From a virus, in IMG/VR virus record IMGVR_UViG_3300045988_059683, positions 1 through 6,031 of that record: a stretch of DNA of 6,031 nucleotides. The stretch is one strand, 5' to 3'. Below the pieces are notes generated by a model that saw only the letters and a program-made list of their open reading frames with translations, searched no databases and had not been told where the DNA came from. Numbering within the stretch: the first letter of the stretch is position 1; each line of letters opens with the position of its first letter. The position numbers were made by a program, and so were the translations under genes. Below, one piece after another: positions 1 to 6,031 of the stretch.

Positions 1-77
1 TCGCTCTTGAAATAGCTGTTGCCCTTTTGGTTCTTATACCATTGTGCGTCCGGTGGCTTCAGTCCAAATACTATCGC
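1..77. repeat. Terminal direct repeat, copy 1 (circular-assembly overlap)
   Basis: TCGCTCTTGAAATAGCTGTTGCCC...AATACTATCGC is identical base for base to 5955-6031. Confidence 0.97.
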
Positions 78-506
78 ATGGTAGTGCGGTCGTTTTGTTC
101 TGTCGCCGTATTCAGCTGCTAGGAAATATTTTATTGGCTTCTTGTATGCTTTCCGTAGCCGCTTTAAAAATAGCTGTACGTCTCGTTTGCTTACTGTCTG
201 ACTTTGAATGCTCCTGTAGCCTTTAAGGATCTCGCCGTATGGTATGTGCTCATCGTCATATGTCAGCGTTAGAAAAATTACATCGTCCCATTCTTTGGCT
301 TCTAGCTCTATTCTGGTTGCCCATTGGTCAGCCATCTGTTTTCTGCAATATTCGCACTTACCGCATGGTAACAATGCGAATTTTCCTTTTTTTATTCCGT
401 CCATGATGTTCGTTTGTAGTCCTTGCTTGGATAGGTTCTCCAGACTTCCCCATAGTTGCGGTTTTTTCGTGTCCATCTGAAATACTAATGGTTTTGTACA
501 TGGCAT
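1..506 (-). CDS. VP4: Replication initiation protein (HUH rolling-circle endonuclease, microvirus VP4 / phiX174 A-like), N-terminal part. The ORF runs off the window start and continues at 5954.
   Basis: It is missing from the ORF track because it has no in-window stop. Hand translation from ATG 506-504 gives MPCTKPLVFQMDTKKPQLWGSLENLSKQGLQTNIMDGIKKGKFALLPCGKCEYCRKQMADQWATRIELEAKEWDDVIFLTLTYDDEHIPYG...YFLAAEYGDRTKRPHYHAIVFGLKPPDAQWYKNQKGNSYFKS. It shows a CxxCxxC cluster, motif 1 (FLTLTY) and the HUH motif (HYH = 78-86). The frame joins 5954 exactly (..FKS-E-WLQKIWGKGMIDF..). Confidence 0.92.
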   Translation of the reverse strand, partial: MPCTKPLVFQMDTKKPQLWGSLENLSKQGLQTNIMDGIKKGKFALLPCGKCEYCRKQMADQWATRIELEAKEWDDVIFLTLTYDDEHIPYGEILKGYRSIQSQTVSKRDVQLFLKRLRKAYKKPIKYFLAAEYGDRTKRPHYHAIVFGLKPPDAQWYKNQKGNSYFKS

Positions 507-591: not shown

Positions 592-772
592 TGTTGAAAG
601 TGTTGAAAACTCGTTTTTTTAACGTTACTACGTTTATTTATTGCCTTTTTCTATGTTGAAAACTTTGTTGAAAACTTGTTGAATTGTTGAATGTTCGTCA
701 TTTTGACGAATTTCTTTGTGCAACTTTATGTTGAAAACCTGTTGAAAGTGTTGAAAACTCAAGTTTTCCACA
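592..772. repeat. Iteron-like array: nine direct copies of TGTTGAAA(AC), one inverted DnaA-box-like copy and a central hairpin
   Basis: TGTTGAAAAC occurs at 601-610, 654-663, 666-675, 729-738 and 749-758. TGTTGAAAG occurs at 592-600 and 740-748. TGTTGAAT occurs at 677-684 and 685-692. An exact 21-mer is duplicated at 592-612 and 740-760. A hairpin TTCGTCA/TGACGAA lies at 694-710. An inverted TTTTCCACA lies at 764-772. Confidence 0.9.
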
Positions 773-800
773 TTCTTTATTTTCTGGATTATTGTTTCTT

Positions 801-835
801 TGCGCGTGTGTGCACGTTTCGTGCGCGCGCGCGTA
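801..835. repeat. Alternating purine-pyrimidine inverted repeat (imperfect 15-bp hairpin; Z-DNA-prone tracts)
   Basis: TGCGCGTGTGTGCACG (801-816) and GTGCGCGCGCGCGTATA (821-837) each alternate Pu/Py strictly. Positions 801-815 pair with 821-835 using four G-T pairs, with loop GTTTC. Confidence 0.7.
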
Positions 836-897
836 TAGTGATAATAGACTGTTTGTCTTACTACAGCGGCAGCCCCCGCGTAGGGGGGCGTGACGCA

Positions 898-928
898 AGG
901 GGGGCCGCAAACTAATTGCGGCCCCCCT
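898..928. other. Perfect 13-bp G/C-rich stem-loop in the noncoding region downstream of VP2
   Basis: AGGGGGGCCGCAA (898-910), loop ACTAA, TTGCGGCCCCCCT (916-928). A second G/C hairpin GCCCCC/GGGGGC lies at 872-889, and a 9-bp hairpin with one mismatch lies at 966-989. No U-tract follows on the coding strand. Confidence 0.8.
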
Positions 929-1009
929 CTTCTATACATGATTGTGTTTTGGTTGCCGCTTGTCTGGTGTCCCCTGTGTTGGGGAAACCTTAGCTTTGCG
1001 CGGAAAGAG

Positions 1010-1882
1010 TCAGTCTCCTTTGTATGGTTCTCCAGATTTGAATCCATCTATTAGTTTGCGTCTTCTTGCTGTTTTGTTGATAGTATCTTCGGCTACTTTG
1101 TCAACGCCTTCTTTTGCTGCTTTGCCAGCTTTTTTTACTGCGTCTTTTGCTTTTTTTCCTGCTTTCGCAAGGCCTGAACCTAATTTGTTAGCTGTATAGG
1201 CGTACTGTTGCGCTTGTTTTGCGCTTGATGTTGCCATTTCGCTTGCCGCTTGTTCCCAGCTTTTTGCACTCTTAAACTGTTTTGCGCTGGTGCTCTCTTT
1301 TGCCAGCTGTAAGTATCTGTCTGCTAGCTCTGCCGTGTTGTTGCCGTATTCGTACATCGCTGATACGCTTGCGGCCTGTGCGCTCTGCTGGTTATAACGT
1401 TGGCTTCCAATGCTTGCAGATGCTCCTGATGTTGCGCTTGTTGCCCCGTTGGTCGCTGCTAGAATAGGATTGATGCCCGCTGCGATCATGTCCTTCACGG
1501 TGTCTTGATAGGCCGTTCCGCGCATTTCCTTCTCAAATGCTCTTTCTGCTGCTGCTTCTGCGCTGTTGTACTTTTTGGCGCTTGCTTGGCTTCCAGCGTT
1601 CGCGAGGTTGCTCAGTAGTCCGCTCATCATTTGTAGCGCGTTTGCGGTGTTTACACTGCTCTGGTTGCCAAATGTGGCAATACCTGTTGGTGTGCTGATT
1701 TGCGTTGAACCTATCTGCTGTGGTGCTGTAATACTGCCTGTTGTGGTCTCGTTGCCTTTGCTGCTCTCGCTGCCGGCTCCTTGGCTGTCTTTGGCGCTGC
1801 TCTGGTTGCTGTTCGTTATGATACCTGTTAACATGCTTAGTCCTTGCATGAGGTACGGCATAAAGCTTAATAACGTTTCCAT
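1010..1882 (-). CDS. VP2: Minor capsid / DNA pilot protein (microvirus VP2, phiX174 H-like)
   Basis: This 290-aa ORF lies directly after VP1. It has a hydrophobic N-terminus and is Ser/Ala/Gln/Gly-rich. Its conserved core AERAFEKEMRGTAYQDTVKDMIAAGINPILAA is the typical VP2 signature, and it has a Lys/Ala-rich C-terminus. Confidence 0.88.
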   Translation of the reverse strand: METLLSFMPYLMQGLSMLTGIITNSNQSSAKDSQGAGSESSKGNETTTGSITAPQQIGSTQISTPTGIATFGNQSSVNTANALQMMSGLLSNLANAGSQASAKKYNSAEAAAERAFEKEMRGTAYQDTVKDMIAAGINPILAATNGATSATSGASASIGSQRYNQQSAQAASVSAMYEYGNNTAELADRYLQLAKESTSAKQFKSAKSWEQAASEMATSSAKQAQQYAYTANKLGSGLAKAGKKAKDAVKKAGKAAKEGVDKVAEDTINKTARRRKLIDGFKSGEPYKGD

Positions 1883-1884
1883 TC

Positions 1885-1910
1885 AAAAATAGCCCCGCTT
1901 TTGCGGGGCT
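1885..1910 (-). terminator. Intrinsic-terminator-like hairpin between VP1 and VP2
   Basis: The coding strand reads AGCCCCGC-AAAA-GCGGGGCT-ATTTTTGA, followed at once by the VP2 ATG (1882). The stem is 8 bp and G/C-rich (1891-1898 / 1903-1910), the loop is 4 nt, and the T5 run is at 1885-1889. Confidence 0.7.
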
Positions 1911-1920
1911 TCCTCCTTTT

Positions 1921-3585
1921 TTAGATTCTTTCGATGCCGGGAATGCTGTAGATAGGCATCTCGCGATACCAGTCTTCCGTGAAGTAGAAGTCACACAAGA
2001 ACTGGTGGCTTACGTTGCTCGTTACTGCAATCGTTCGGTCAATGTTCTGTTGCCCTTCTTGTATCCACTCTGCCGAGAGACGCGGCAGAGCGTCATAATC
2101 GTCCGCATAGTGCCAGGCGTCCAAGCTCGTCTGGTGGTTAGAACGCATTTCGCCGGTTATGTAAGAAGGTTTATAGCGGTAATCTGCCCATGCTTCTTGA
2201 TAGCCGAAGATTTCATTGTCTTCATCCGTGCCCTGTGCATAGATTTCGCGGTTATATACTGGCTGTTCTCCCAGTGCTGCCAAACGCGGGTCGTAGTAGG
2301 TGAATCGCCCGCCACGTGTCCACTTGGTCGCAAGTCCCTGTTGGTAACTGTGCTCCACTCGTACTACTGCCAGACCGATGATATAGCCGTACTCAGTCGC
2401 CGCATAGTCCACCATCTGTTTGCTACATGTGGTCAGACTGTATGCCGCCGTGTTGCCCAGTGCCTGTCCGGTTGTCGTGTCCGTCTGGCTTGTCTGAACG
2501 ACCTGATTGACATTGATTGCAATACGCTGGCCGCCGATGTATTCAGGAATCTGAAGCCGGCTGTCCGGGCTTGTTACACCCCACGTACCAGACAGGAACT
2601 CGCGGTACCTCGTGCCGTTGCGTGCATCTGCTTCAAAGATGTGCTGCAAGGCGATTGCCATGCGCAAGTCCTGAATGCTTACTCCGGTTACGGCGCTAAG
2701 GTTTGCGCCTAGATATGCCACATCTCCTACATGTTTGGTTTCGCTCGAGCTTCCTGTTACTTGCGAAATTTTTTCTCCCGATTGGTTGTTGGTAATTCCT
2801 GGTATGTAACTGTCTATAGCTTCTTGGTTGAAGTAGATTGCTTGTTTTCCGCCTGCTGTCCCGTATTCTGTTAGTTCTTTGTTTTTGTACATTCCTACCG
2901 GCGCATTGCCTGTCATGCTGATTTCCACAGGATCAGACTTTAACGGAAATGGGAGACAGGATGTGAAGTAGTCGTGGAATTTTCCGGCCTTTGCCGGTTT
3001 CATTCCGTATAGTGCCCCTTCGTTCATGTTCGTTGTTTTTTCCGGGTCGTTGGCGCTATATTGGATGTCTACCGTTCCATTGCCCGCCGGCACTCCGCCA
3101 TCGTCGGTTTTTTTATAGCCTAGCATTAACGGTGCTTCTATATTTTCATCTCTGAACCATTCGTTGTAGATCATCGCGTAGGCGCGTGCCGGCAGTGCGT
3201 TTACTTTGATTGTTTTGTTTATGTTCGTAGGCAGTCCGAAATAATCGCCGATGCTTCCGTTTTGGATTCCCTTATCTACTCCAAATTCGCAAGTCGGCGT
3301 GCTGTATTCGGTTTTTTCTTCCCAGTAGTCGGTATCGTTCTCGCCGAACATATTTTCCCAGTGGTTCCACAGCAGACGGCACGGAACAAAAAAGAAATAG
3401 GTATCCATGTAGCAGTTATCCATGACCGGATAGATGGGCGTACTCATACGAATAAGCCCGTTCAGGCGTACCCGTGCGGTATCACCCGGTAGTACTTCAT
3501 CGCAGTAGATTGGCACTAAGTCGCCCTCGTTAATGGTCGTTAAGAGCTGGTGACTCCGGTCAAACTTGCTGCGTGGTCGTTCCAT
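1921..3585 (-). CDS. VP1: Major capsid protein (microvirus VP1 / phiX174 F family)
   Basis: This is the largest ORF. The N-terminal RSKFDRSHQLLTTINEGDLVPIYCDEVLPGDT is the conserved microvirus capsid signature. I prefer the ATG at 3585; the ORF track starts at a GTG at 3594, three codons upstream. Neither start has an SD. The stop is TAA at 1921-1923. Confidence 0.95.
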   Translation of the reverse strand: MERPRSKFDRSHQLLTTINEGDLVPIYCDEVLPGDTARVRLNGLIRMSTPIYPVMDNCYMDTYFFFVPCRLLWNHWENMFGENDTDYWEEKTEYSTPTCEFGVDKGIQNGSIGDYFGLPTNINKTIKVNALPARAYAMIYNEWFRDENIEAPLMLGYKKTDDGGVPAGNGTVDIQYSANDPEKTTNMNEGALYGMKPAKAGKFHDYFTSCLPFPLKSDPVEISMTGNAPVGMYKNKELTEYGTAGGKQAIYFNQEAIDSYIPGITNNQSGEKISQVTGSSSETKHVGDVAYLGANLSAVTGVSIQDLRMAIALQHIFEADARNGTRYREFLSGTWGVTSPDSRLQIPEYIGGQRIAINVNQVVQTSQTDTTTGQALGNTAAYSLTTCSKQMVDYAATEYGYIIGLAVVRVEHSYQQGLATKWTRGGRFTYYDPRLAALGEQPVYNREIYAQGTDEDNEIFGYQEAWADYRYKPSYITGEMRSNHQTSLDAWHYADDYDALPRLSAEWIQEGQQNIDRTIAVTSNVSHQFLCDFYFTEDWYREMPIYSIPGIERI

Positions 3586-3610
3586 TCGCGGCACTTGCGC
3601 GAAATGGTTC

Positions 3611-4027
3611 TCACTGTTTCTGTTCGTTTTCCTTCACTTCTTCCTTCTTCTCTTCTTCTTTCGGCTTTGGCTGTTCGGTCTGTTTCAGCTGTTCCAGCAT
3701 TTCGGCTGCAGCTTCTGCTTTTTCGTGCATCGTCATGATATCCTTCGGCAGATTTTCGAGGTCTGTATCTTCGGTGTATACTACGCTCTTAGCCTTGATG
3801 CTGGTGTCTCCAGCTTCCAGCCGCGCGATTGCGCTTGCAAGGTCGTAGCCCTCGCCCGCTTTCTGGATTTTCTCGTATGTGTTTTCGTTCGGCTGCTTGA
3901 TGTAGTCGGTTGTGCCGTTCGGTCGTTTGACCGCTTTCCACGTTGGCGCGGTCTCGCTGCCCGGATTGTTTGTTACTCTCTTGGTTGGCACACCGTAGTA
4001 CTTTACCATCACATCAGGATTTAACAT
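3611..4027 (-). CDS. Putative internal scaffolding protein (VP3-like), 138 aa
   Basis: The ORF lies immediately upstream of VP1. A strong SD (GAAGGAG) lies 7 nt before ATG 4027. The protein is hydrophilic with an acidic/lysine-rich tail (EQPKPKEEEKKEEVKENEQKQ). The functional call rests on position and composition only. Confidence 0.5.
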   Translation of the reverse strand: MLNPDVMVKYYGVPTKRVTNNPGSETAPTWKAVKRPNGTTDYIKQPNENTYEKIQKAGEGYDLASAIARLEAGDTSIKAKSVVYTEDTDLENLPKDIMTMHEKAEAAAEMLEQLKQTEQPKPKEEEKKEEVKENEQKQ

Positions 4028-4268
4028 TGTCCGTCTCCTTCAGGTCGATGAGCCGCACGATGTGCTCGGGCATCGCTTCGCTCATGTAGCCCGTTTCGGT
4101 GTCGAACTCGCCCAGTTCTACGAGCGAAATATCTTCGATTTCACTCGGTTTGCTTTCGTTGGCCTTCCATCGTGCCGTTCTTACCGCCTGTGCCCTGTTG
4201 TTCTGCAGAAACGGCTGTGAATAACCGTTGGTCAATGCATCGTGGAATGAATAGAATTTCAGTTTCAT
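4014..4268 (-). CDS. Small nonstructural protein, 84 aa (possibly gokushovirus VP5/ORF5-like); function unknown
   Basis: An SD (AAGGAAA) lies 7 nt before ATG 4268. The ORF overlaps the next gene by 14 nt. The pattern F..D....GYSQPF...N...A.R.......P.....L..LGEFD.ETG resembles a small protein I recall from many gokushovirus-like genomes. This was not verifiable here. Confidence 0.6.
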   Translation of the reverse strand: MKLKFYSFHDALTNGYSQPFLQNNRAQAVRTARWKANESKPSEIEDISLVELGEFDTETGYMSEAMPEHIVRLIDLKETDNVKS

Positions 4269-4279
4269 GTTTTTTTCCT

Positions 4280-4390
4280 TTACTCTTTGTTCGCATCCTT
4301 CAGTGCGTGGTAAATTTCATCGAGCTTTTCAAGGATTTTCATCATCAGCGCAATTGCTTCCTTAACGTCCTTGATTTTGATTAATGCCAT
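4280..4390 (-). CDS. Hypothetical 36-aa amphipathic helical peptide
   Basis: It is below the ORF-track length cutoff. Hand translation gives MALIKIKDVKEAIALMMKILEKLDEIYHALKDANKE. A strong SD precedes it (AAGAGGTGG-CTTA-ATG), and its TAA stop is embedded in the SD of the next gene (TAAAGGAA). Confidence 0.5.
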   Translation of the reverse strand: MALIKIKDVKEAIALMMKILEKLDEIYHALKDANKE

Positions 4391-4421
4391 TAAGCCACCT
4401 CTTTTCTTTGGTTTGTGTCGC

Positions 4422-4538
4422 TTACAGCCGGATACCGCCTCGCGATACCTTCGGTCTTACGTTGATGTTTTTTACCTTCTTTGCAGTCTGGGTAAAGTGT
4501 TTCTGGTCTCCTCGACCCGCTCCGCTTCTGTGCGCCAT
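4422..4538 (-). CDS. Small highly basic DNA-binding/packaging peptide (phiX174 J / gokushovirus VP8-like), 38 aa
   Basis: It is below the ORF-track cutoff. Hand translation gives MAHRSGAGRGDQKHFTQTAKKVKNINVRPKVSRGGIRL, with 10 K/R and one acidic residue. The C-terminal RGGIRL is, as I recall, typical of microvirus basic peptides. A consensus SD (AAGGAG) lies 8 nt before ATG 4538. Confidence 0.7.
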   Translation of the reverse strand: MAHRSGAGRGDQKHFTQTAKKVKNINVRPKVSRGGIRL

Positions 4539-4550
4539 TAGTTTACTCCT

Positions 4551-4616
4551 TTATTTGTTTTTTCTGTTTTTTACAATTTGCTTTTTGGTCTGGTCTCGTA
4601 CATTCCATGATTTCAT
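4551..4616 (-). CDS. Possible 21-aa basic micro-ORF (or 29 aa if started at ATG 4640)
   Basis: Hand translation gives MKSWNVRDQTKKQIVKNRKNK. An SD-like AAGGAAAA lies 6 nt before ATG 4616. The TAA stop is embedded in the SD of the J-like gene (TAAAGGAG). It is very short, so this is a weak call. Confidence 0.25.
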   Translation of the reverse strand: MKSWNVRDQTKKQIVKNRKNK

Positions 4617-4681
4617 TGCTGATTTTCCTTTCCAGGTCATGGCGTCATTTGATTACCGCTTGATTTTGATACGTTCCATTG

Positions 4682-5074
4682 TTACATCCCCTTTCTGTAT
4701 TTTTTTCCGGTTCGTACATCAAAGTGTACCCAAGTGTTGTGTACGATAATGCCGCATTCATCTGGGACGATTTCATTCAGTTTGTTGGCAAGTTCTTTTG
4801 CGCTCATTCCATCGACTCGGATATCTGCTGCCATACCGCGCATGTGGTAGCTGTATTTTGCTCCGTTGTATTTTTTGTTCCACTCTGGTGTTCTGTATCC
4901 GCTGGTGATAATGACTGGTTTCCCTAGTTTATGTCGGAGGATGTCCAGAATGTTATACAAGTAGTCATCTATGAATACTATCGGACTTCCGTCTTTACAT
5001 GCAAATTCTTTTACTTTGAAGTGTCTTGCAAGTTGTACGTTTCCGTCTGTGTTCATGATATAGCTTTTAAGCAT
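4682..5074 (-). CDS. Zinc D-Ala-D-Ala carboxypeptidase-type peptidoglycan hydrolase (peptidase M15A / Peptidase_M15_3-like), 130 aa
   Basis: The M15 pattern reads HFKVKEFACKDGS...LGKPVIITSGYRTPEWNKKYNGAKYSYHMRGMAADIRV...NTWVHFDV, with the putative Zn ligands His (SYH), Asp (AAD) and His (VHFD). I start it at ATG 5074, which has AAGGAG 11 nt upstream overlapping the stop of the previous ORF. The track start at 5101 is a TTG with no SD. Confidence 0.88.
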   Translation of the reverse strand: MLKSYIMNTDGNVQLARHFKVKEFACKDGSPIVFIDDYLYNILDILRHKLGKPVIITSGYRTPEWNKKYNGAKYSYHMRGMAADIRVDGMSAKELANKLNEIVPDECGIIVHNTWVHFDVRTGKKYRKGM

Positions 5075-5090
5075 TTTTGTCAATTCTCCT

Positions 5091-5261
5091 TTAAAGCTCA
5101 AATGTTTGGTCTATTCTGTAAAGTGTTACTTTTATTACGTTTGCTTCTGCTCTACATTTTTTCGCTTTTTCTTTTGCGTCTCTGGTTGTTTCTATCCACA
5201 TCCTTTGTTCTTTTGTACCGTTTTGGAAATGCACTCTTACTAAGAATTTGTACTCTTTCAT
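5091..5261 (-). CDS. Hypothetical 56-aa protein, first gene behind the promoter and translationally coupled to the M15 peptidase
   Basis: It is below the ORF-track cutoff. Hand translation gives MKEYKFLVRVHFQNGTKEQRMWIETTRDAKEKAKKCRAEANVIKVTLYRIDQTFEL. An SD (AGAGAGG) lies 8 nt before ATG 5261. The TAA stop (5091-5093) lies inside the M15 SD (TAAAGGAG). There is no hydrophobic segment. Confidence 0.6.
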   Translation of the reverse strand: MKEYKFLVRVHFQNGTKEQRMWIETTRDAKEKAKKCRAEANVIKVTLYRIDQTFEL

Positions 5262-5291
5262 GGTGCTTACCTCTCTTTCTTTTCTGACTCT

Positions 5292-5308
5292 ATTATATCA
5301 TATGTCAA
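5292..5308 (-). promoter_or_regulatory. Extended -10 sigma70-type promoter (TGaTATAAT) reading toward ORF56 and the M15 peptidase
   Basis: The coding strand reads CCTATTGACATATGATATAATAGAGTCAG. A perfect TATAAT lies at 5297-5292 and is preceded by TGa. The hexamer at the 17-nt spacing is only CGGAAA (3/6). A perfect TTGACA (5308-5303) sits only 5 nt upstream, so it cannot serve as the -35. Confidence 0.6.
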
Positions 5309-5333
5309 TAGGTTTTTCCGTGATTTTGCTGCT

Positions 5334-5365
5334 TTGTAATAAAATTGTAACCTTTTCTTGTAACC
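5334..5365 (-). promoter_or_regulatory. Three direct repeats GGTTACAA / GGTTACAA / TATTACAA (coding strand) upstream of the promoter
   Basis: The plus strand shows TTGTAACC at 5345-5352 and 5358-5365, and TTGTAATA at 5334-5341. The copies start 11 and 13 nt apart and lie about 35-70 nt upstream of the -10 hexamer. Confidence 0.4.
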
Positions 5366-5464
5366 CGGTTTTGCTCCTTTGTTTTGAAAGCGCTTTAGCG
5401 CCTTGCCGTATGGAGCGCAGCGGAATTCGGCTAAATAAAATCTTCCTTTTTAGCGCTGTGCGCG

Positions 5465-6031
5465 TCATGCTTTTGGTTCACGCCACTTTTGTCTTAGCTT
5501 GTCTTTTTCTTTCTGAATGTTGAGATAGGTTTCGTAATCCACGTTCGTGTTCTGTTCGAGATTGACTAAACTTTGTATTGCGTTGCGTCTACGTTTGGCT
5601 CTAACCTCTCTCAGCTCGTCAGAATGTGCCTTAAAATAGCTTTCTGTGTCTTGGCTGGTATCCTTATCCTTATCTAGTATCTTATCAAAATAGCGTGGAG
5701 GCCTTTTCTCGCGGCCTCCTGCGCATATGATGCTATCTGTTTTTAAGATTTCGTCTTTGTGTTCGTTTAGATACTTTTCGCCGATTCCTTTTGACATGAT
5801 TCGGAACTCTGGTTCTCGACCTTCCATCCAGTATTTAGCCGCTTGCTCTGCGCCTATGGCTTTTTTGTTGACGTACTGTGCTACGTATGCGTAGCTTCCC
5901 GGCTGTGCTGGTGAAAAGTCTATCATGCCCTTGCCCCAGATTTTTTGTAGCCATTCGCTCTTGAAATAGCTGTTGCCCTTTTGGTTCTTATACCATTGTG
6001 CGTCCGGTGGCTTCAGTCCAAATACTATCGC
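5465..6031 (-). CDS. VP4: Replication initiation protein VP4, C-terminal part (5955-6031 duplicates 1-77). The full gene is 996 nt / 331 aa on the circle.
   Basis: The track ORF 5465-5926 is open upstream to the window end in the same frame. It carries the catalytic double-tyrosine motif YVAQYVNKK (Y at 5885-5887 and 5873-5875), which has the same Y-x3-Y spacing as phiX174 protein A. The stop is TGA at 5465-5467. Confidence 0.92.
   Translation of the reverse strand, partial: AIVFGLKPPDAQWYKNQKGNSYFKSEWLQKIWGKGMIDFSPAQPGSYAYVAQYVNKKAIGAEQAAKYWMEGREPEFRIMSKGIGEKYLNEHKDEILKTDSIICAGGREKRPPRYFDKILDKDKDTSQDTESYFKAHSDELREVRAKRRRNAIQSLVNLEQNTNVDYETYLNIQKEKDKLRQKWREPKA
5955..6031. repeat. Terminal direct repeat, copy 2 (circular-assembly overlap)
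   Basis: Identical to 1-77. It lies inside the rep coding sequence, so it is an assembly or permutation overlap, not a biological terminal repeat. Confidence 0.97.

Follow-up and report, generated by a model that had tools for sequence, protein, structure and literature searches.

How a soluble murein peptidase could gain access to the host cell wall is the question raised by the 6,031-nt stretch of viral DNA analysed here (henceforth the window), which is a complete circular gokushovirus genome from a gut-type clade and carries every one of its genes on the minus strand. Its whole-genome identity to MT121961 and KX513876 is 86–87%. Gokushoviruses are described as having no amurin resembling phiX174 E (Kirchberger & Ochman 2020). 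The original prediction pointed to a zinc peptidase gene, a small ORF directly upstream of it and a promoter ahead of both as a lysis module. The genes and ribosome-binding sites concerned are as follows.

4682–5074, minus strand: M15_3 peptidase, 130 aa from its ATG; a single domain and putative endolysin with no signal, SAR or TM segment.
5086–5091, minus strand: Shine-Dalgarno sequence AAGGAG of the peptidase, read from the sequence and sharing the last base of the ORF56 TAA.
5091–5261, minus strand: ORF56, 56 aa, basic (net +5) and soluble, with a predicted beta-beta-alpha-beta fold; probably a facultative accessory gene.
5270–5275, minus strand: Shine-Dalgarno-like GAGAGG, read from the sequence, 8 nt upstream of the ORF56 ATG.

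The peptidase was matched by Pfam PF08291 (Peptidase_M15_3) with E=1.3e-22 and 80.4 bits against a cutoff of 23.2, residues 27–128 aligning to profile positions 2–108 of 108. Matches to PF05951 (7.5e-08) and to PHROG 894 'endolysin' (1.1e-42) were also obtained. The zinc-ligand set is complete, comprising H77-x6-D84 and H117 (within VHFD) together with the SxxR motif SGYR; the M15A-type zinc peptidase previously read from these motifs was thus recovered by profile search with no metal ligand substituted. All 27 homologues compared keep S58-G59-Y60-R61, H77, D84, H117 and D119 unchanged, and in the alignment to the Streptomyces albus DD-peptidase (1LBU) H77 and D84 are paired with H154 and D161. 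Substitutions fall mostly at third codon positions (558/336/1316), indicating purifying selection, and homologues of 130 aa support the ATG at 5074 as the start codon. The structural model of the peptidase was only of moderate quality (mean pLDDT 66.5), with values of 80–93 in the core (residues 81–120) and below 50 in residues 1–32. Its top Foldseek matches were all LAS enzymes or domains (1LBU, hedgehog N-domains, VanY, VanXY and LdcB) with probabilities of ~1.0, but with E-values of only 3e-3 to 3e-2 and TM-scores of ~0.47. The NCBIfam equivalog model NF053624 for MepK, a peptidoglycan L,D-endopeptidase, gave 44.3 bits, below its cutoff of 185, and on this score MepK is a related domain and not an orthologue. 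The enzyme is almost certainly a true member of the M15 (LAS-type) zinc peptidases, of the endolysin type, and it would presumably be muralytic.

Two groups of known enzymes were useful for comparison. The zinc D-Ala-D-Ala carboxypeptidase of S. albus G (1LBU, MEROPS M15A) is the best PDB match in both sequence and structure and probably has the same core fold, but identity is only ~29% over 90 columns, and 1LBU is secreted and carries an extra N-terminal wall-binding domain. Outside the microviruses, the nearest homologues come from tailed phages of Faecalibacterium (FP_oengus, FP_Toutatis and Lelie; PHROG 894), where they are annotated as endolysins; they are ~135 aa long and 43–45% identical over their full length. 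Like the peptidase in the window, they consist of a single catalytic domain without a wall-binding domain or signal peptide; in FP_oengus, however, a holin is encoded two genes downstream of the endolysin, and the microvirus has none.

M15_3 peptidases were already analysed in human-gut Gokushovirinae and Alpavirinae by Roux et al. 2012 (PLoS One, PMC3394797), who reported horizontal transfer, an affinity to Faecalibacterium, adjacent unknown ORFs and, in prophages, the same context as in FP_oengus, and proposed an endolysin role. The gene in the window belongs to the same Pfam family and virus group, occupies the same VP4–VP5 position and differs in nothing essential from those gut gokushovirus peptidases. 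The earlier remark that such genes had been noted sporadically is therefore too weak, given also that 1368 protein clusters of this gene class are present in public data. GenBank 'peptidase M15' coding sequences of Human gut gokushovirus (KX513876, KX513877 and KX513868) are 64–67% identical to the peptidase at the amino acid level, and unannotated copies in MT121961 and KT264791 are 87–88% identical. Literature searches returned no paper in which a microvirus M15 peptidase had been characterised by experiment; those retrieved say only that it is 'likely involved'. At its core the finding is not new, as this class of genes had been published in 2012 together with a horizontal origin and a proposed function. 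What the present comparison adds is the conservation of the promoter, a hypervariable ORF slot, the occurrence of two peptidase alleles within the same backbone and the lack of a holin across the clade.

The peptidase was found in all 73 of the 73 loci chosen by VP1 similarity alone (≥67% identity), and the closest copies in IMG/VR are up to 96% identical. Two alleles, only ~42% identical to each other and both carrying the same motifs, occur at different positions of the same backbone. Peptidases 71–95% identical were found in genomes whose VP1 is only ~40% identical, and a ~400-nt peptidase segment was the only megablast match to distant genomes. Exchange of the peptidase cassette between lineages is evident from these identities; they also support the horizontal acquisition that had been proposed, and the peptidase is best explained as an accessory, mobile gene in a gokushovirus backbone.

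No export or membrane-spanning element was identified in the peptidase or around it. In mean hydropathy over 19 residues (Kyte-Doolittle; KD19) the peptidase reaches at most 0.71 and ORF56 at most 0.15, and the peptidase N-terminus, MLKSYIMNTDGNVQLARHF, is hydrophilic by the same type of test. Longer database versions of the peptidase were considered as signal-bearing forms and rejected, as their extensions are only basic, hydrophilic read-through. Among coding-strand ORFs of at least 20 aa in the window, none reached a KD19 of 1.4 except the N-terminus of VP2 (1.42), in agreement with the earlier reading that the small minus-strand ORFs lack a hydrophobic helix. A conserved holin-like ORF was absent from 128 related genomes, 7 of which have any ORF with a KD19 of at least 1.6, and scanning of the three coding-strand frames in the window and the same 128 relatives yielded no embedded hydrophobic amurin-like ORF. 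Compared with a canonical holin-endolysin cassette, the endolysin-type gene is present while the holin, signal peptide and SAR segment are absent by hydropathy. All sequence-level statements of the original prediction, including the lack of a signal or TM segment in the peptidase and of an embedded membrane-protein or amurin ORF, hold.

In our preferred explanation, the peptidase would be made in the cytoplasm without an export signal, would be unable to cross the membrane alone and would most likely cut murein peptide stems or cross-links of the host late in infection, aiding virion release. By analogy, a role in lysis is probable. Access to the wall may be provided by a membrane or wall lesion arising from a hypothetical lysis function of the gokushovirus backbone, a step that we put forward tentatively and with somewhat less than even confidence. 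Six related genomes (L140–L145) contain neither a peptidase nor a TM ORF and must still lyse their hosts, which speaks for an accessory nature of the peptidase. Peptidase-less relatives would have to rely on the same backbone function, and the peptidase would serve as an accessory 'finisher'. Taken as a whole, and together with the transcription unit described below, this explanation is held with slightly better than even confidence. With an enzyme that is universal, intact in its ligands and under purifying selection, and with no conserved holin-like ORF in 128 genomes, the clade offers a clean test case for gokushovirus lysis, and the peptidase gene is small enough for genome synthesis and rebooting tests of the kind carried out on EC6098 (PMC7062461).

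A second explanation dispenses with wall access altogether: the peptidase would stay in the cytoplasm and cleave the stems of UDP-MurNAc-pentapeptide or lipid II, starving wall synthesis. Precursor cleavage would explain why holin, signal and SAR segments are lacking across the 128 genomes, and the cytoplasm-facing D-Ala-D-Ala peptidases VanXY and VanY are among the Foldseek matches mentioned above. It would also conform to an established strategy of small phages, the single-gene block of murein synthesis exemplified by phiX174 E. The likeness to phiX174 E and other amurins, which block MraY, MurA or MurJ, lies in a small ssDNA phage without a holin and in a target within the murein pathway; the difference is that E is a small overprinted membrane protein that inhibits synthesis, whereas the window encodes a soluble hydrolase, gained by horizontal transfer, and no membrane ORF. 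The closest homologues with a known context are, however, endolysins of tailed phages that possess holins, and the proteins nearest in sequence, the S. albus DD-peptidase and MepK, act on murein outside the cytoplasm, which makes precursor cleavage improbable, at roughly one step above the explanations considered next. The broader proposition that the clade lyses its hosts by a soluble M15 peptidase without any phage-encoded membrane lesion, be it through precursor destruction or a lysis activity of a core protein, is likewise unlikely, if a little less so. Were it true, clostridial (Gram-positive-type) hosts would be suggested by the affinity to Faecalibacterium phages, the strong AGGAG sites and the extended −10 promoters; to our knowledge, infection of hosts of this type has not so far been demonstrated for any microvirus.

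The preferred explanation gives no part to ORF56, which had been named the obvious candidate partner of the peptidase. The ORF56 TAA (5093–5091) directly abuts AGGAG (5090–5086), and the peptidase ATG at 5074 lies 11 nt further on, leaving a gap of 16 nt between stop and start. The arrangement is one of close packing and not of stop/start overlap. ORF56 gave no match to Pfam, PHROGs or NCBIfam. Its family comprises 54 protein clusters in the database; every one of them comes from contigs of microvirus size, and a Pfam domain is present in none. The AlphaFold2 model of ORF56 (pLDDT 81.5) is a compact beta-beta-alpha-beta fold for which Foldseek returned nothing significant in the PDB (best match, the phi29 p56 UDG inhibitor, E=0.33) and its own family alone in BFVD; neither search revealed structural likeness to a known chaperone or holin.

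ORF56 could in principle be a dedicated helper of the peptidase, acting as an export chaperone or as a non-canonical membrane permeabiliser. The precedent is mycobacteriophage Ms6, in which Gp1 assists the holin-independent export of the endolysin LysA as a chaperone. The likeness consists in a small ORF immediately upstream of an endolysin without a signal peptide, reinforced here by the tight packing of the two genes and by the joint occurrence of an orf56b-ORF56-peptidase block in two unrelated backbones (L025 and L026), into which it has travelled with ORF56 88–95%, the peptidase 88–90% and VP1 only ~40% identical. Unlike Gp1, ORF56 is not conserved together with the peptidase and has no detectable similarity to any known protein. 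Homologues were detected in 14 of 146 related genomes by tblastn and in 55 of 146 by a family HMM (56 instances); 25 of these instances are separated from the peptidase by over 300 nt, and one is in the peptidase-less genome L140. Conversely, peptidases 92–96% identical (L013–L019, L021) are preceded by unrelated small ORF families or by none. In five genomes (L009, L117, L122, L127 and L131) the ORF56 homologue has its own promoter and a trailing hairpin, the next gene being orf38 in all of these but L009. ORF56 also lacks TM or amphipathic lytic character, as its low KD19 and compact fold indicate. Because of the patchy distribution, the distant copies and the near-identical peptidases without it, ORF56 is very probably an optional extra and not the dedicated partner, and the helper explanation is retained only as a faint prospect. 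By comparison of the related genomes, the interval separating the peptidase from the promoter (or from VP4) is a hypervariable slot occupied by at least a dozen unrelated small ORFs, of which ORF56, predicted to be a small soluble protein of the cytoplasm, is one. Attention is consequently shifted from ORF56 to the peptidase alone and the backbone proteins.

A local functional link between ORF56 and the peptidase in the window is conceivable in view of the tight packing and the joint travel in L025 and L026. Upstream, orf56b (5298–5468) was rejected as a gene, as its substitutions (87/122/142; 52 synonymous versus 178 non-synonymous) are unlike those of coding sequence; its conservation may be at the DNA level.

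Two further explanations fared worse still. Phages of thick-walled hosts often carry entry hydrolases, and the position of the peptidase as the second ORF behind the promoter would be compatible with a virion-associated or early murein hydrolase used for DNA delivery. Yet no fusion of the peptidase to the pilot protein VP2 or any structural protein was found in ~134 genomes, no portion of the peptidase can be recognised as targeting it to the capsid, relatives without the gene still infect, and its tailed-phage homologues sit in lysis cassettes and not beside tail-tip genes with structural domains; a function in entry is accordingly very improbable. That a membrane protein on the complementary strand serves as holin, either a 121-aa ORF (4384–4749, plus strand) or a 118-aa ORF (4931–5287, plus strand), can be practically discounted: both have an ATG start and segments with a KD19 of 2.4–2.7, and Roux et al. 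2012 noted a complementary-strand ORF beside the peptidase in one gut genome, but the plus strand is T-rich, rendering nearly all antisense ORFs 'hydrophobic' (~40 such), substitutions show no codon periodicity (94/80/83; 40 synonymous versus 144 non-synonymous) where the 121-aa ORF overlies DNA that is non-coding on the minus strand, stops or indels interrupt the antisense frame in the majority of relatives, and no full promoter match exists on the antisense strand of 121 genomes.

The preferred explanation, an accessory peptidase acting alongside the backbone, also concerns the unit from which the gene is transcribed. The features involved are listed below.

5292–5300, minus strand: extended −10 promoter element TGATATAAT, the sole match to TGNTATAAT in the window.
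5055–5083, minus strand: promoter-like TTGACA-17-TATCAT (11 of 12 positions) from the two-hexamer scan, spanning the peptidase start codon.
4422–4538, minus strand: orf38, 38 aa, net +9, matching phrog_10695; a backbone gene in the same transcription unit as the peptidase.
4280–4390, minus strand: orf36, a conserved amphipathic helical peptide of 36 aa; a backbone gene unannotated in GenBank relatives.
1891–1910, minus strand: terminator-like hairpin of 8 bp (7 G-C) followed by a T run, just past the VP1 stop.

A single match to TGNTATAAT in the window is weak when taken alone, as 30 of 200 shuffles also have one. The element TGATATAAT has no good −35 at 17 nt, TTGACA being only 5 nt upstream, and was missed by the two-hexamer promoter scan; the same TTGACAnnTGnTATAAT arrangement is present in L026, L039 and L042. 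Ahead of the ORF56 homologues a canonical TTGACT-17-TGGTATAAT was found in L117, L122 and L127; L009 (TGATATAAT) and L131 (TGGTAGAAT) have slightly different forms of it. In 121 relatives, 103 of the 132 extended −10 matches lie within 700 nt upstream of the peptidase, as do 90 of the 92 full promoter matches; these genomes are mutually related, so that p-values for this enrichment overstate independence. On this comparative evidence the element at 5292–5300 is a genuine and conserved promoter, as had been proposed, and no other strong one was seen on the coding strand. Its assignment to a dedicated lysis module was overstated. The minus-strand terminator scan identified no terminator-like site between the promoter and the hairpin at 1910–1891, the only one found, and the promoter therefore most likely drives the whole structural operon; it is best treated as the main operon promoter, with the hairpin as the presumed operon end. 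A conserved extended −10 promoter of the sigma-70/sigma-A type would thus initiate the main transcript, running in the order ORF56, peptidase, orf38, orf36, VP5, VP3 and VP1 and probably ending at the post-VP1 hairpin.

The promoter-like sequence at 5083–5055, inside the peptidase start, was overlooked in the original prediction. It was rejected as a working promoter, as its transcript would begin downstream of both the ATG at 5074 and Met7, and it is probably fortuitous and not productive in this genome. In relatives with wider spacing, such as L100 and L012, a true −10 does come after this TTGACA.

The two small backbone genes behind the peptidase show a coding signature in their substitutions, which for orf36 (609/283/1762) denotes strong purifying selection. 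The product of orf38 is likely a J/ORF8-type DNA-binding protein; among the 135 relatives whose genomes measure 5.1 kb or more (VP1 39–100% identical), 129 have the gene, including the six peptidase-less ones, and it was not detected in the distant loci L134–L139. orf36 was present in 91 of 93 genomes in the first survey, is 65–94% identical among relatives and, in lineage B, comes immediately after the peptidase. It was considered as a conserved partner of the peptidase and rejected, with 6 genomes carrying orf36 without the peptidase and 24 carrying the peptidase without a detectable orf36.

A VP1 scan of 185,579 species genomes, meant to identify the host through prophages, gave as its sole match a free 5,739-nt microvirus contig binned into the 'Bacteroides sp. 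CAG:545' MAG. Such a free contig in a MAG bin is not host evidence. Finally, the G+C content of the module is below that of VP1, as claimed: G+C (GC3) amounts to 0.333 (0.30) for ORF56, 0.412 (0.45) for the peptidase and 0.502 (0.56) for VP1, with a genome G+C of 0.462. The dip is strongest at ORF56 and the intergenic DNA and moderate across the peptidase.

The 6031 nt as given represent a complete circular microvirus genome. The 77-nt exact terminal direct repeat (1-77 = 5955-6031) is the assembly overlap of the circle, which leaves 5954 nt of unique sequence with the VP4 gene running across the junction. The minus strand carries all recognisable genes of the window, listed below.

Genes of the window
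506..1 and 5954..5465, minus strand: VP4 replication protein, wrapping the junction
5091-5261, minus strand: ORF56
4682-5074, minus strand: M15 peptidase
4422-4538, minus strand: orf38, basic 38-aa ORF
4280-4390, minus strand: orf36, 36-aa ORF
4014-4268, minus strand: VP5
3611-4027, minus strand: VP3
1921-3594, minus strand: VP1 (Pfam Phage_F, E=2e-148)
1010-1882, minus strand: VP2

The nearest GenBank genomes were Gokushovirinae sp. MT121961 (86.5% identity over 92% coverage) and Human gut gokushovirus KX513876 (87.2% over 83%); the latter already bears a 'peptidase M15' CDS annotation.

The original prediction of an M15 zinc peptidase was borne out by matches to Pfam Peptidase_M15_3 (E=1.3e-22, well over the gathering score), Peptidase_M15_2 (E=7.5e-08), PHROG 894 'endolysin' (1.1e-42) and 1LBU, the Zn DD-peptidase of Streptomyces albus, whose H-x6-D ligands align with its own. 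Residues S58-G59-Y60-R61, H77, D84, H117 and D119 were unchanged across 27 homologues, and both divergent peptidase alleles found among the relatives retain them. Structures were predicted for both the peptidase and ORF56; the AlphaFold2 peptidase model was only moderate (pLDDT 66.5) because of a shallow alignment, and its top PDB matches were all LAS or hedgehog-type peptidases. The assignment as an M15 enzyme is solid. Database homologues are 130 aa long, supporting a start at the ATG at 5074 and not the TTG at 5101.

As an observation the original prediction was accurate, but genes of this kind had been published before and are no new discovery from the window. M15_3 peptidase genes were described in 11 human-associated Microviridae, five being Gokushovirinae; four of these five had closest homologues from Faecalibacterium prausnitzii, repeated horizontal transfer was inferred, an unknown ORF adjoined the gene in 5 of 11 cases, bacterial and prophage homologues were seen to sit in lysis cassettes with a holin, and an endolysin role was put forward (Roux et al. 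2012, PMC3394797). These findings were restated, and peptidase exchange between microvirus families documented, by Kirchberger & Ochman 2020 and Kirchberger et al. 2022. M15 peptidases have also been described in cultured marine microviruses. A literature search found no experimental test of any microvirus M15 peptidase. With the peptidase as query, tblastn matched 649 phage records, IMG/VR returned 248 encoding loci, and the protein database held 1368 clusters (90% identity), the best 120 all on microvirus-sized contigs.

The window's genes were mapped onto 146 related genomes or loci. An M15 peptidase lay between VP4 and VP5 in 73/73 loci found by VP1 similarity alone (≥67% identity), so the gene is fixed in this lineage. 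Two alleles, only about 42–46% identical, occupy different positions: peptidase-orf38-orf36-VP5 for the window type and orf38-(orf36)-peptidase-VP5 for the other. Carriers of the second allele (relatives L095, L098, L107-L118, L120-L127 and L130-L132; VP1 70–91% identical to the window, peptidase 41–46%) mostly place it after orf38 or orf36, not before, L126 being an exception; two such alleles in one backbone imply that the gene was acquired independently, or replaced, at this locus. A second lineage with VP1 only ~40% identical has window-type peptidases (71–95% identity). In one such genome, L014, the peptidase is 95% and VP1 42% identical, and megablast of the window against L014-like genomes matched only the ~400-nt peptidase segment. 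It follows that the cassette moves between microviruses, which had been reported before (Kirchberger et al. 2022).

No route across the membrane was found for the enzyme. The original prediction had noted no signal or transmembrane segment at the peptidase N-terminus and no hydrophobic helix in the small minus-strand ORFs, and an all-frame hydropathy scan agreed: the VP2 N-terminus (marginal) was the only transmembrane-like stretch on the coding strand, and the maximum 19-residue Kyte-Doolittle mean (KD19) reached just 0.71 in the peptidase and 0.15 in ORF56. No conserved holin-like ORF (coding strand, ≥25 aa, KD19 ≥1.6) was present in 128 related genomes, only 7 of which had any such ORF, and N-terminally longer database peptidases showed hydrophilic read-through only. 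By comparison, in Faecalibacterium phage FP_oengus, whose endolysin is 45% identical to the peptidase, the second gene downstream of the endolysin is annotated as a holin, whereas the window has none. Six relatives of 5.2–5.5 kb (L140-L145) retain orf36 and orf38 and lack both peptidase and membrane ORF. Separately, KT264793 carries at 5057-5176, directly after orf38, a convincing 39-aa transmembrane ORF (VITFLAIMFSMIACYAIIVGSVYLTIMMVDDIKKWRNEK, KD19 2.59). It may be a holin or amurin-like gene, and neither the window nor any other of the 128 scanned genomes has it.

The best-supported reading is that a horizontally acquired endolysin-type Zn peptidase would help break down the host's wall late in infection, probably aided by a putative envelope-damaging function of the backbone. 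Since the peptidase has no route across the membrane and close relatives without it must lyse too, we infer that it probably relies on such a backbone function to damage the envelope first. Action in the cytoplasm on murein precursors is rather improbable; if true, it would make the peptidase an enzymatic analogue of amurins and is the most interesting alternative. The export problem is genuine and testable, yet no new discovery from the window. A role in entry is unlikely, as is an antisense-encoded holin: antisense ORFs are hydrophobic just because the plus strand is T-rich, and the 121-aa ORF at 4384-4749(+) lacks a coding signature and is broken up in the majority of relatives.

ORF56 had been proposed as the peptidase's partner, a hypothesis that the comparisons do not support. 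The described packing is present, its TAA stop (5093-5091) directly abutting an AGGAG that lies 11 nt before the peptidase ATG. The family comprises 54 database clusters, all on ~6-kb contigs or shorter fragments, and is real; its alignment shows whole-codon indels and a kept hydrophobic pattern. ORF56 is a basic, soluble protein modelled with fair confidence (pLDDT 81.5) as a compact beta-beta-alpha-beta domain; profile and structure searches gave no family or fold match outside its own relatives. A helper role by analogy with Ms6 Gp1-LysA would suit this adjacency and is nonetheless unlikely, as the patchy distribution argues against a dedicated link. Homologues were detected in 14/146 genomes by tblastn and 55/146 (56 instances) by family HMM; 25 of the 56 are separated from the peptidase by >300 nt, and a peptidase-less genome has one. 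The ORFs found directly ahead of the peptidase form at least 12 unrelated clusters; where the peptidase is 92–96% identical to that of the window, a different ORF or none comes before it. In L009, L117, L122, L127 and L131 a near-consensus promoter of its own (TTGACT-17-TGGTATAAT in L117, L122 and L127) precedes the homologue and a G+C-rich hairpin comes after it, with orf38 the next gene in all except L009. This arrangement is that of an independent accessory cassette. Across 121 related genomes the VP4-peptidase interval is a hypervariable slot with at least 12 unrelated small-ORF families (35–80 aa), often behind one conserved promoter and leader (TGATATAATAGAGTCAGAAAAG...): despite the very small genomes, a moron-like hot spot for accessory genes. 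The region's lower G+C was confirmed (ORF56 0.333, peptidase 0.412, VP1 0.502, overall 0.462).

The promoter claim stood in part. TGATATAAT occurs once only, at 5292-5300(-), and is conserved, also ahead of ORF56 homologues only 40% identical. By itself the lone copy is not significant (p about 0.15), and a generic scan found fewer promoter-like sites than in shuffles (4 vs 7.2 ± 2.4). Despite these weak single-window statistics the promoter is taken as real from comparison across 121 genomes: on the coding strand, 103/132 extended -10 matches and 90/92 full TTGACN-16/18-TANAAT matches fell ≤700 nt upstream of the peptidase, a stretch of 12% of the genome (binomial p ~1e-67 and ~1e-79, inflated by genome relatedness), and the opposite strand had zero full matches. 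The only terminator-like site on the coding strand, downstream of this promoter, is a strong hairpin at 1891-1910(-) (8 bp, 7 G-C, T run) that separates the VP1 stop from the VP2 start; past it, VP2 lacks a Shine-Dalgarno sequence. The conserved upstream promoter and this hairpin after VP1 suggest that TGATATAAT chiefly drives an operon from the peptidase to VP1 and is not specific to lysis.

A clostridial host has been speculated (Roux et al. 2012, PMC3394797). Strong AGGAG-type ribosome-binding sites ahead of ORF56, the peptidase, orf38, orf36 and VP3, the extended -10 promoters and the Faecalibacterium-phage endolysin affinity are indirect hints that fit such a host and prove nothing. Among bacterial genomes the sole match was CAVKUS010000079.1, a free contig of 5,739 nt that is itself a complete gokushovirus genome (VP1 81% identical). 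It is filed under a 'Bacteroides sp. CAG:545' MAG, in all likelihood through a binning artefact, and is not a prophage on this reading.

Two further small ORFs were noted. orf36, MALIKIKDVKEAIALMMKILEKLDEIYHALKDANKE, is a conserved amphipathic peptide (59–94% identity across ~105 related genomes) under strong purifying selection (609/283/1762 substitutions by codon position); it has no family match, is not annotated in GenBank relatives and occurs both with and without the peptidase. orf56b, 5298-5468(-), overlaps the VP4 stop (ATGA), is kept in about half of the relatives and in one (L097) is joined in frame to ORF56. Third codon positions are not in excess among its substitutions (87/122/142; 52 synonymous vs 178 non-synonymous), so what is conserved may be an element of the DNA or RNA and not a protein.

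Between VP2 and VP4, the intergenic region (520-1009) contains a perfect 13-bp G+C-rich hairpin at 898-928 (AGGGGGGCCGCAA / TTGCGGCCCCCCT, 5-nt loop) and a GCGCGCGC palindrome at 813-840, both spanned by a 137-aa ORF (634-1047(-)) with no family match. Seven exact copies of TGTTGAAA at 592-756(+) (0.24 expected; 0/200 shuffles reach 7) are set in larger, iteron-like 35–36-nt repeats adjoining a (GTA)n run at 570-589, and this array may be an origin or regulatory region.
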